Positions 12,851 to 33,648 of a stretch of DNA of 64,000 nt are shown piece after piece. A program made the position numbers and the translations under genes. Location of the stretch: assembly GCF_965641715.1 (NCBI RefSeq), contig NZ_OZ282453.1. One strand, 5' to 3'. The notes under the pieces were generated by a model that saw only the letters and a program-made list of their open reading frames with translations, was not told where the DNA came from and ran no database searches. Numbering within the stretch: the first letter of the stretch is position 1; every line of letters begins with the position of its first letter. The stretch is from Escherichia coli. GTDB taxonomy: Bacteria; Pseudomonadota; Gammaproteobacteria; Enterobacterales; Enterobacteriaceae.

Positions 12851-12885
<35 letters not shown>

Positions 12886-18431: not shown

Positions 18432-19838
18432 TCAGAAGATGGTGAATGGTGCGATTACCATAAATTTCACGTCGCGCTCATCCTGGAAGATGTTACCGTA
18501 ACCGCCACCCCAGCTTGGGATGTCGGAGTGGTTGTCGTATTCGGTGAAGTGCAGTTTGAACATCGTGCCTTTGGCGCGACCGTCCTGAATGGTGTAGACC
18601 GCATCCAGGCTGTATGCAGACTCTTCAATAGTCCGGTTTTTGTCGTAGTACGCATCCGGATTGCTCTGCCAAGTCGCAGGTTTAGCATCCCATGCGTAAA
18701 CGTAGGAAGCGCCGATGGCGAAGCCTGGAAGATTCCAGTTTTTCAGGTCATACATCGCACCGAAGAAGACCGCTTTTTCGCCGTTGGCGTTGAAGTCAGA
18801 ACGGTTATCCCACCAGATATCCAGGCGGCCGTTGGAAGAAGCGTAGGTTGGAGTCATACGTTGCAGGAAGTATCCCTGCTGACCTTCAGCCTTAACCCAG
18901 GTGCCTTCGAGGCGCAAATCCACTACGTCAGCCGCCCGGTAACCAAAGGTCAACGCTTGCAGCCAGGCGGTGCCGTCATAAAGATCGTTGACGCTGCGAT
19001 CGTCAACTTTATCGCGCGTACCGTAGAACTGGTAGCTGGTGGTTAACGGGCTACCGGCGATATCAAATTTGTAGCTGGCTTTGGCAAAGTATTGATCGAT
19101 ATACCCTTCCGCCTGACCAAATGCCGCTTCCAGTACGAAGTTATTTTTGAAGTCGTATTTCGCACCAAGGGAGTGCAGATAATCAACTTTGGTGGTTTTA
19201 TCGTTCTGATAAAACTCATCCATTTCCAGATGCCACGGTGCTTTGTATTCGTTGGTCCACATGTAGGAGAAACTCAACGCACCAGCATCGCCGTAATCAA
19301 AATTCGCTCCGGCTTCCGCACCCTGATAAGTACCCGGCATAAAGCTCCAGTGAGGCGCTAACAGCGTCTGACCGGTTGGCTGAATATAACCTGCCCTCGC
19401 CCAAACCGGACCGTATTTAAATTTGGCCGCAGCTTTATACAGGCTTATACCGCTTTTGTCGCCGGACCAGTCTTCGTCATAGGCTTTATTACTTTTTGAA
19501 AACGCGATTTCGTTCGGGTGAGAGCTGTCGCCGTTTTCCGCCATTTCAATCGCCGTAAACGCAGCAATATCAAGGCCGAACATATCAGCAGCATAACCGG
19601 ACTGAAAATCGAGGTTGGCATTCCAGGTGGAGTGAGAAAGGTTGGTTTTGTATTTGTCGCCGTCGGTAACATCTTTACGGTCGCGTTCACGCTGCCAGTA
19701 ATATATACCGCCGGTTAAGGTTGAATCGTCGATGAATCCTTCGGCGCGAGCCTCCGGCATTGCCATAAAGCCCGACATTGCTGTAACACCGGCGATAGCC
19801 AGCGCCAGCGTACTACGTTTGCCACTAAACGTACGCAT
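18432..19838 (-). CDS. chiP: chitooligosaccharide outer-membrane porin ChiP (468 aa)
   Basis: Signal peptide, OprD-like beta-barrel, C-terminal aromatic residue (ends ...APFTIF). Confidence 0.93.
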
Positions 19839-20219
19839 GGGTTAATCCTCTTTGACGTATAAATTGCTGCACCAAAGGTGAACAGCGAAAAAAAATAAAA
19901 ATTAAAAAAGTAGCGTTGAGAAAAGTCTCGCTGACTACAGGAACAGACTATTTTTCGCGACGCGAATTATCAATCTCTTTCTGTAACCAGAATGTAAGAA
20001 CATGAGCAACCGCACATATTTTGATGATTTTTGTTACAAGGCTTAAGTTTGCGGTTGAAAGGCTTGCAGAAGAATAAAAGCGTGAATTTCCAGCAAGATG
20101 AAAGCGGTTACATTTTATTTAATTATGTTTTGTTATTTTAAATTTATTTTATGGATAAATTGCGAAGCGGAATTAATTCGCGAAGAAAAGCAGAAAAAAC
20201 GCCGCTGAACGCGGCGTTT

Positions 20220-20410
20220 TGGATTGTTTGCATATTTCTTGCCGGATGCGGCGTGAACGCCTTATCCGGCCTACAAAAGCACGCAAACTCAATATATTGC
20301 AGAGATCATGTAGGCCTGATAAGCGTAGCGCATCAGGCAATTTAGCGTTTGAAACTGTTTGTCTGTTCCTTGCCGGATGCGACGTAAACGCCCCATCCGG
20401 CATAGCGAAA
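20220..20410. repeat. BIME/REP cluster (at least three REP units) between glnS and the chiP promoter
   Basis: gccggatgcggcgtgaacgccttatccggcctac, gtaggcctgataagcgtagcgcatcaggca and gccggatgcgacgtaaacgccccatccggca. Confidence 0.75.
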
Positions 20411-20417
20411 CTTAAAA

Positions 20418-22082
20418 TTACTCGCCAACTTTCGCCCAGGTATCACGCAGCCCAACGGTGCGGTTAAATACCGGTTTTTCGGCAGTGGAATGGCGGCTAT
20501 CGAGGCAGAAGTAACCTTCACGCTCAAACTGGAATGCTTTACCCGCAACCGCATCTTTCAGCGACGGTTCAGCAAAGCCCTGTTTGATCACCAGCGATTC
20601 CGGGTTAATCACCGACAGGAAATCATCCGCAGCACCAGGGTTCGGCACACTGAACAGACGGTCATACAAACGGATTTCAACCGGCAGCGCATGTGCCGCG
20701 CTCACCCAGTGAATAACACCTTTGACTTTACGACCATCTGCCGGATCTTTACTTAAGGTATCGGCGTCATAAGTACAGAAGATGGTGGTGATATTACCTT
20801 CGGCATCTTTCTCGACGCGTTCTGCCTTAATCACATAAGCATTACGCAGACGCACTTCTTTACCGAGCACCAGACGTTTGTACTGCTTGTTAGCTTCTTC
20901 GCGGAAATCGGCGCGATCGATCCAAATCTCACCGCTAAACGGCACCTGACGGCTCCCCATTTCCGGTTTGTTCGGATGGTTCGGCATGGTGACCATTTCG
21001 CCTTCGCCCTGATAGTTTTCGATAACCAGTTTCACCGGATCGATAACCGCCATTGCGCGCGGCGCATTTTCGTTGAGATCTTCACGGATGCAGGATTCCA
21101 GCGACGCCATCTCAATGGTGTTGTCCTGCTTGGTCACGCCGATGCGTTTGCAGAACTCACGAATAGAAGCCGCAGTGTAACCACGACGACGCAGACCGGA
21201 AATGGTCGGCATTCGCGGGTCATCCCAGCCTTCAACGTGCTTGTCGGTCACCAGCAGGTTCAGCTTACGCTTGGACATCACAGTGTATTCCAGATTCAGG
21301 CGCGAGAATTCGTACTGGCGCGGGTGAACAGGAATGGTGATGTTGTCCAGCACCCAGTCGTACAGGCGACGGTTGTCCTGGAACTCAAGCGTACACAGAG
21401 AGTGCGTAATACCTTCCAGCGCATCGCTGATGCAATGGGTGAAGTCGTACATCGGGTAGATGCACCACTTGTTGCCAGTCTGGTGGTGTTCAGCAAATTT
21501 AATGCGGTACAGCACCGGATCGCGCATTACGATAAATGGCGACGCCATGTCGATTTTCGCACGCAGGCAGGCTTTACCTTCTTCAAAACCGCCGGTACGC
21601 ATTTTCTCGAACAGCGCCAGGTTCTCTTCAACGCTACGGTCGCGGTACGGGCTGTTTTTACCAGGCTGCGTCAGGGTGCCGCGGTATTCGCGGATCTGTT
21701 CCGGCGTCAGTTCATCAACGTACGCCAGGCCTTTATTGATCAGTTCGATCGCATAGGCGTGGAGCTGATCAAAATAATCGGAGGAGTAACGGACGTTACC
21801 AGACCAGTGAAAACCTAACCACTCAACGTCGTTTTTGATCGAATCGACATACTCGATATCTTCTTTTACCGGGTTAGTGTCGTCGAAACGCAGGTTGCAC
21901 TGGCCTTTATAGTCCTGGGCGATCCCGAAGTTCAGGCAGATAGATTTCGCATGGCCAATATGCAGATAGCCATTCGGCTCCGGCGGGAAACGGGTGTGTA
22001 CTGTGGTGTGCTTACCACTGGCCAGATCTTCATCGATGATCTGACGAATAAAGTTAGTCGGGCGGGCTTCTGCCTCACTCAT
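20418..22082 (-). CDS. glnS: glutaminyl-tRNA synthetase (554 aa)
   Basis: [17 protein letters not shown]...; class I HIGH (HIGH) and KMSKS-like (VMSKR) motifs. Confidence 0.97.
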
Positions 22083-33316: not shown

Positions 33317-33473
33317 CTTATTCCCCCTACGAGAACCCTATTTGGCTCGTTTAAAGCCGTATTTTTATTTTGCTGCAAATTGTACTGCCGATGTTCTGTA
33401 ATCAGATTGTTAGATCATCTGCTACAGAGTGTGTGAAAATTTAATTCGTATCGCAAATTAAACGCGTGTCTTT

Positions 33474-33489: not shown

Positions 33490-33648
33490 AAATATCGTTA
33501 TCATCACTCCCTTTTACTGGCTAAACCAGAAAACTTATTTTATCATTCAAAAAATCAGGTCGGATTGACGCCTGTCTGCGCAAATCCAGGTTACGCTTAA
33601 AGATGCCTAATCCGCCAACGGCTTACATTTTACTTATTGAGGTGAATA

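Follow-up and report, generated by a model that had tools for sequence, protein, structure and literature searches.

Layered chiP control sites, a predicted glnS terminator and an optional REP cluster between glnS and chiP in Escherichia coli

The chitoporin gene chiP (ybfM) of E. coli K-12 and Salmonella lies behind a textbook example of layered control, in which a transcriptional repressor, an sRNA, an sRNA sponge and Rho-dependent termination are combined. Repression of chiP by NagC and its silencing by ChiX (MicM/SroB) have been stated repeatedly (PMC4098024; Salmonella preprint bioRxiv 10.64898/2026.05.02.722398). Evidence for the pairing of ChiX with chiP comes from compensatory mutations (Figueroa-Bossi 2009 and Overgaard 2009, cited in PMC7815308). 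Term-seq placed an RNA 3' end at the base preceding the chiP ATG, and overexpression of ChiZ, the sponge released from the leader, lowered ChiX and raised chiP (PMC7815308). GalR also represses: its site at chiP was inferred by ChIP-chip and confirmed by ChIP-qPCR, and is called a known operator with citation of Plumbridge et al. 2014 (PMC5110547, Table 3). In the literature on CRP control of chiPQ we found only a listing of ybfM among new Genomic-SELEX targets of CRP (PMC3105977).

Two further described systems are relevant. One is the NagC two-operator loop, as at nagE-nagB, chb and glmU. The other is BIME-1, a y and a z1 REP around an L linker that is long, well conserved and in many cases equipped with an IHF site; RIB was the name under which such elements were first reported, at transcription-unit 3' ends (PMC3333891).

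Here we examine the corresponding locus in the window, meaning the whole 64,000-nt stretch of E. coli DNA that was analysed. The gap between glnS and chiP spans 19839–20417, exactly between two minus-strand ORFs that match the NCBIfam profiles for glutamine--tRNA ligase and chitoporin ChiP (Table 1). An earlier note, made from the sequence alone, had put the distance from the glnS stop to the chiP start at about 580 bp; it measures 579 bp. The note gave no strand (it is minus). The interval is 100% identical to that of E. coli O145 RM9872 and 99.1% identical to that of K-12 MG1655, with the same flanking genes, the K-12 order in RefSeq being nagE-glnS-chiP-chiQ-fur. Differences from K-12 comprise two extra T in the leader U-run and a 1-bp indel beside one REP (REP3), neither of which implies anything functional. 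The proximal NagC operator, the GalR operator, the start, the ChiZ boundaries and the ChiX site are the same as in K-12, and their assignment here is shown through this identity to published or annotated elements. The window thus carries an ordinary E. coli allele, with three REPs, of a locus already known in detail.

Nearly all of the earlier interpretation is supported. The proximal ~350 bp had been called AT-rich, and GC is 25–38% over 19850–20200 against 50–55% in the flanking genes, with 25–29% at 20050–20200. The distal 190 bp had been assigned to a REP/BIME cluster, a fair description given 178 bp from the glnS stop to the last REP. The chiP start, the NagC operator and the ChiX site had been expected in this interval, and all three lie inside 19839–20417. 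Only the proposal that the BIME is the likely glnS terminator needs correction, as argued below. The earlier note had also overlooked a separate terminator hairpin (20220–20196), the GalR operator, a CRP-like site, a distal NagC-like site and the ChiZ sRNA. What is gained is a base-level map of the elements in window coordinates and a clear placement of the REP cluster as a strain-variable insert in the glnS 3' UTR. In addition, cross-genus comparison yields two testable hypotheses, the helical phasing of NagC sites and a conserved TGTWACAAA block, either of which may already be published. Beyond annotation the significance is small.

Table 1. Elements between glnS and chiP and the two flanking genes, in window coordinates
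Feature	Position	Strand	Basis and remarks
chiP coding sequence	18432–19838	-	ORF; NF047822 chitoporin ChiP, 853 bits; ATG 19838–19836
chiP 5' UTR = ChiZ	19839–19938	-	100 nt here, 98 nt in K-12 (b4808, 708236–708333)
ChiX pairing site CGTCAAAGAGGA	19846–19857	-	perfect 12-nt complement to ChiX nt 46–57 (UCCUCUUUGACG)
Leader hairpin 2	19886–19866	-	fold
Leader U-rich tract	19909–19888	-	sequence
Leader 5' hairpin	19938–19910	-	fold
chiP promoter	19945–19973	-	-35 TTGATA 19973–19968; 17-bp spacer; -10 TAGTCT 19950–19945
NagC 'ybfM proximal' operator GATAATTCGCGTCGCGAAAAATA	19949–19971	-	-33 to -11; overlaps -35 and -10
CRP-like site TGTGC-GGTTGC-TCATG	20001–20016	-	centre -70.5, class I position
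Conserved block TGTAACAAA (TGTWACAAA)	20029–20037	-	~-95; 9/9 conservation in non-Escherichia genera
GalR operator ATGTAACCGCTTTCAT	20098–20113	-	centre ~-167.5; reverse complement ATGAAAGCGGTTACA
Distal NagC-like operator TCTGCTTTTCTTCGCGAATTAAT (putative)	20172–20194	-	centre ~-245; 7.6 bits in E. coli; left half degenerate
glnS intrinsic terminator, predicted	20190–20220	-	10-bp stem AAAACGCCGC/GCGGCGTTTT, 5-nt loop, then U-run
REP3 (TGCCGGATGCGGCGTGAACGCCTTATCCGGCCTAC), Y-type (presumed)	20240–20274	+	regular expression; fold -20.9 kcal/mol; sole unit of one-REP allele
L-type linker	20275–20309		35 nt between REP2/REP3 tails; contains IHF-like site
IHF-like site ACTCAATATATTG	20287–20299	+	1 mismatch to IHF consensus WATCAANNNNTTR; sequence match only
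REP2 (GCCTGATGCG...CTTATCAGGCCTAC), Z-type	20310–20338	-	regular expression; fold -13.2 kcal/mol
REP1, extra Y-like REP hairpin	20372–20401	+	regular expression; fold -25.7 kcal/mol; starts 16 nt past glnS stop
glnS coding sequence	20418–22082	-	ORF; TIGR00440 1068 bits; RefSeq annotation; stop TAA 20420–20418

We consider it very likely that the region comprises two functionally separate halves, the 3' end of glnS and the control region of chiP, operating as follows. The glnS transcript would pass through the optional REP cluster and then end at the conserved hairpin and U-run (20220–20190). A weak sigma-70 promoter (TTGATA-17-TAGTCT) would initiate chiP transcription at 19938, and NagC on the operator at -33 to -11 would shut it off. 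NagC would probably also loop to a second operator ~223 bp upstream, with the GalR operator (-167) and the CRP-like site (-70.5) inside the loop. On the transcript, ChiX would pair over the ribosome-binding site, blocking translation and promoting Rho-dependent termination; transcription ending at the start codon would release the leader as ChiZ, which would in turn sponge ChiX.

The transcription start was taken from K-12. The first base of its annotated chiZ/chiP transcript (NC_000913.3, b4808, 708236) aligns to the G at 19938, in agreement with ChiZ/chiP cloning primers beginning (G)TAGTCAGCGAG (PMC7815308, supplement 4). Promoter elements were read from the sequence relative to this annotated start. 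Both the -35 and the -10 are invariant across the genera aligned. The -10 matches the consensus at 3 of 6 positions, and because of this weakness a consensus promoter scan missed the chiP promoter. The single match that the scan did return (20141–20112) was rejected, 1.4 matches being expected by chance.

The operator overlying this promoter, GATAATTCGCGTCGCGAAAAATA, is entered verbatim, under the name 'ybfM proximal', among the known NagC sites that FITBAR uses (PMC3098098, Table 1), in line with the NagC control that the earlier note had mentioned. Scored with a matrix (PSSM) built from the other nine listed sites, the proximal operator itself being left out, it reached 22.8 bits and ranked second in the 64-kb window. 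The window also contains the nagE operator (33440–33462, 23.0 bits) and the nagB operator (33534–33556, 18.6 bits), which served as positive controls; only the former outscores the chiP operator, and the latter falls below it. Across ~70 Enterobacteriaceae species the proximal operator is essentially invariant.

Downstream of the start, the leader aligns end to end with K-12 708236–708333 apart from a 2-nt difference in a T-run, so that its ends coincide with those of the sRNA chiZ (b4808), which adjoins chiP in the curated K-12 record. ChiZ would be 100 nt here because the leader U-run has T8 against T6 in K-12. This run (19880–19887, minus strand) is strain-variable, with T7 in APEC O2-211, for ChiZ lengths of 98–100 nt. 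When 21 leaders from the aligned lineages were folded separately they showed a shared layout built from differing sequences: two hairpins, the first starting at +1, with a U-rich tract between them, then an A/U spacer and the invariant ChiX site. RNAalifold found no pairs in a MAFFT alignment of the same 21 leaders, since their hairpins share a shape but cannot be aligned. Taken as a whole, the E. coli leader folds with ordinary stability (z = -1.2). The two leader hairpins presumably have functional roles.

Targeting by ChiX had likewise been mentioned in the earlier note, and its site does fall within the leader. With the K-12 ChiX sequence (b4585), 12 of 12 positions form Watson-Crick pairs, and the paired stretch covers the Shine-Dalgarno GAGG (19850–19847), 8 nt upstream of the ATG. 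The site CGTCAAAGAGGA is present in a single copy in the 64-kb window, and 20 of 21 lineages keep GTCAAAGAGG unchanged. RNAduplex, given full-length ChiX and the leader, returned a meaningless long-loop duplex, equalled or bettered by 3 of 500 shuffles; it was uninformative, and we therefore relied on the exact 12-nt complement. Three Citrobacter loci (Citrobacter sp. wls619, Citrobacter sp. Cu233 and C. gillenii; L022–L024) carry an insertion of ~125 bp directly upstream of the ChiX site, with TATAC on both sides. It roughly doubles the leader and keeps the ChiX site; we take it to resemble an ERIC/IRU repeat.

Upstream of the promoter, the comparison drew on 80 loci encoding ChiP relatives, for 69 of which the upstream glnS end was located. 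The glnS–chiP spacer in these 69 is mostly 385–486 bp, with a few longer (510–565 bp) and one of 1266 bp. The longest is in Enterobacter sp. JUb54 (L045), which has ~800 bp of extra DNA after the glnS terminator. When 23 lineages were aligned, separate conserved blocks stood out from AT-rich DNA that could not otherwise be aligned. One such block is the GalR operator, a 16-bp dyad of the form GTGNAANC.GNTTNCAC that is conserved across genera; read on the other strand, as ATGAAAGCGGTTACA, it is the chiP site of the ChIP studies (PMC5110547, Table 3). Another is TGTWACAAA, almost invariant across genera and ~21 bp upstream of the CRP-like site; we found no factor assigned to it in the literature.

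The CRP-like site itself, TGTGC-N6-TCATG, we infer to be a CRP site. It is strongly conserved and agrees with the consensus TGTGA-N6-TCACA at 7 of 10 core positions in E. coli and 8 of 10 in most other genera; its centre at -70.5 compares with class I positions near -61.5, -71.5 and -82.5. Its distance from the proximal NagC operator is 45 bp in all 66 loci in which the operator was correctly picked. The three Citrobacter loci with the leader insertion also have 45 bp to the true operator, the insertion having misled the pick.

Directly after the terminator lies the distal NagC-like site, which takes the form ...TTCGCGATGCGAATTAAT in most genera. We regard it as a putative NagC binding site. 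In E. coli it scores low, and AT-rich neighbours outscore its 7.6 bits. Two of these, 20124–20146 (12.3 bits) and 20154–20176 (10.1 bits), were judged composition-driven and rejected because the orthologous positions are not conserved. The orthologous distal motif, ...CG-NN-GCGAATTAAT, reaches up to ~18 bits against the NagC matrix in other genera. In one Kosakonia locus (L073) the exact motif is missing and a variant, GAGAATTAAT, scores 22.6 bits. The GCGAATTAAT motif is absent from eight loci (L041, L047, L048, L049, L051, L055, L065 and L081). These belong to the Enterobacter/Lelliottia/Leclercia group, plus one unclassified MAG, and have intact proximal NagC, CRP-like and ChiX sites.

Start-to-start spacing of the distal and proximal sites, measured in 62 sequences from ~60 species, clusters at 200–203, 210–214, 221–226, 232–236 and 245 bp, with E. 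coli at 223 bp. The best period is ~11–11.7 bp, and 0.04% of random sets of distinct values were as periodic (10–11.5 bp range), in a test that leaves shared species ancestry uncorrected. Steps of ~11 bp are what a protein-mediated DNA loop predicts, and this stepping suggests a repression loop. That the 2010 list speaks of a 'proximal' site suggests that the Plumbridge laboratory knew of a distal one by then. The arrangement is like that of the NagC two-operator loops in having a strong operator over the promoter, one that scores comparably to the nagE and nagB operators of the same window, and a second NagC-like site upstream, helically phased. It differs in the degenerate E. coli distal site and in looping that is here predicted from sequence; the spacing is ~200–245 bp, longer than the 94 bp that separate the window's nagE and nagB operators. 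Taken at its broadest, as a NagC–NagC loop of ~200–245 bp conserved in whole helical turns across Enterobacteriaceae and enclosing the GalR, CRP-like and TGTWACAAA sites, the idea is tentative, and we would sooner bet against it than for it. If it were true, TGTWACAAA at ~-95 would belong to yet another regulator. In Escherichia the left half of the distal site, which abuts the terminator U-run, is degenerate, and the loop could accordingly be stronger or weaker there than in other genera.

Turning to the glnS half, a terminator scan found AAAACGCCGC-GTTCA-GCGGCGTTTT followed by TTCTGCTTTT, 20 bp beyond REP3. This hairpin folds at -16.5 kcal/mol (z = -4.5), and none of 200 shuffles was as good. 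The stem, with variable loops, is kept in 22 of the 22 other lineages aligned (20 other genera), and in two lineages it shows an A-T to G-C double change. We found no mapped glnS 3' end in published Term-seq supplementary text, and for this reason we speak of a predicted terminator. This separate conserved hairpin and U-run would end the glnS transcript, and the BIME would not be needed for termination.

The REP cluster lies between this hairpin and glnS. The window has 5 matches to a REP regular expression, against 0.01 expected from shuffles, and 3 of these are inside the interval; the other two are at 1563–1595 and 12851–12880. The three units of the cluster alternate in orientation. REP2 and REP3 are inverse and tail to tail (GGCCTAC and GTAGGCC), with tails 93% complementary across the 35-nt linker, and REP3 we take to be of the Y type by its consensus. 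A 41-nt linker query, consisting of the linker and 3 flanking REP-tail bases on each side, was found dispersed through 5425 E. coli genomes, at a median of 12 places per genome. REP1 is both an arm of an inverted repeat and part of the second copy of a 60-nt direct repeat (20214–20273 and 20345–20404, 78% identical). That repeat comprises a Y-type REP and 27 nt of chiP-side flank, is common to REP1 and REP3, and enters the 5' arm of the terminator. The duplicated 60 nt suggest that the three-REP allele arose through duplication or recombination of the REP3 unit.

REP2 and REP3 are therefore a BIME-1/RIB-like pair around an IHF-type linker, and REP1 is an additional unit. In common with BIME-1 and RIB (RIP) elements the pair is inverted tail to tail, has a 35-nt linker repeated ~12 times per genome and an IHF-like motif, and sits just past the glnS stop. 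Unlike them, the cluster is upstream of the terminator rather than downstream, and the IHF motif is 1 mismatch off the consensus. The third REP, with a duplicated 27-nt flank, gives a three-unit arrangement that makes the whole cluster atypical for BIME-1, a single-copy element of one y and one z1 REP. The 'three-unit BIME' of the earlier note was fair in that there are three REP hairpins, although strictly they form a BIME-1-like pair and one further REP.

The extended stem of REP1 begins 12 nt past the glnS stop codon (20402–20417). REPs located ~15 nt or less from a stop codon reportedly reduce the expression of the gene upstream. The REP1 copy occurs only in the three-REP allele; in the one-REP allele, REP3 is at a similar distance from the stop. 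A search of all Rfam families (E up to 10, over 19300–20900) gave nothing at gathering score, and Rfam has no ChiZ family. The best matches, naRNA4, ES036 and STnc220, were rejected as REP or terminator look-alikes, the sub-threshold match to naRNA4, itself REP-derived, being at REP1.

Presence of the cluster varies between strains. At least 80% of the interval, and with it the three-REP form, is covered in 2467 of 5425 E. coli genomes (45%). In the lower-ranked E. coli records that we sampled, the match begins at query position 146–150, which is REP3. APEC O2-211 has an intergenic region of 447 bp in which REP3 directly follows the glnS stop, giving one REP. E. whittamii (447 bp) and E. albertii (454 bp) likewise have one REP, with REP3 retained, and in one genome that bears the label E. 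coli two REPs are arranged differently within 510 bp. These REPs were found in none of the other genera aligned, making the BIME Escherichia-only. In Superficieibacter sp. (L010) there are GC-rich palindromes of its own between the glnS stop and the terminator; since these are different, the same spot was independently colonised by another repeat family.

This distribution bears on whether the REP/BIME cluster itself acts as glnS terminator, or as a supercoiling insulator shielding chiP from glnS transcription. The REP hairpins are stable (-13 to -26 kcal/mol), REPs and BIMEs have been credited with terminator, mRNA-stabilising and insulator roles, and RIBs are found at 3' ends (PMC3333891). 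None of the three REPs, however, is followed by a U-run, and a canonical terminator conserved in all genera aligned stands 20 bp further on. Moreover ~55% of E. coli, as well as E. albertii and E. whittamii, have one REP only, and the other genera lack these REPs, with only Superficieibacter having different palindromes there. A cluster reduced to one REP in ~55% of E. coli and absent from other genera cannot be required, and we consider such a role unlikely. Because the terminator is kept in every genus aligned and the full BIME is missing from ~55% of E. coli, we regard the REP cluster as an insert in the glnS 3' UTR that is optional and varies between strains, and as part of neither the terminator nor chiP control.

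It is also conceivable that the AT-rich 200 bp from terminator to promoter are an unconstrained spacer or an H-NS-type silenced tract, leaving only the proximal 130 bp functional. Its GC of 25–29% (20050–20200) would fit, most of the stretch aligns poorly between genera, and the sole promoter-like match in it is at chance level. Against this, GCGAATTAAT, the GalR operator and TGTWACAAA are conserved across genera within the tract, GalR occupancy has been measured in vivo (PMC5110547), and tract length varies in ~11-bp steps. We hold this explanation to be very improbable.

A small protein encoded in the interval is the least credible reading: ORFs of 64–82 aa are present and PGAP annotates one in APEC O2-211 and strain E9, but the ORFs pass through REP hairpins and the terminator, the underlying sequence is absent or unalignable outside Escherichia, and most of the E. 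coli records listed have no annotation at the matching position. The annotated product, WP_000649026.1, is a 52-aa 'hypothetical protein' (617–775 of the APEC O2-211 locus, L004, and in strain E9) on the strand opposite to glnS and chiP; spanning REP, terminator and AT-rich DNA, it is probably an annotation artefact.
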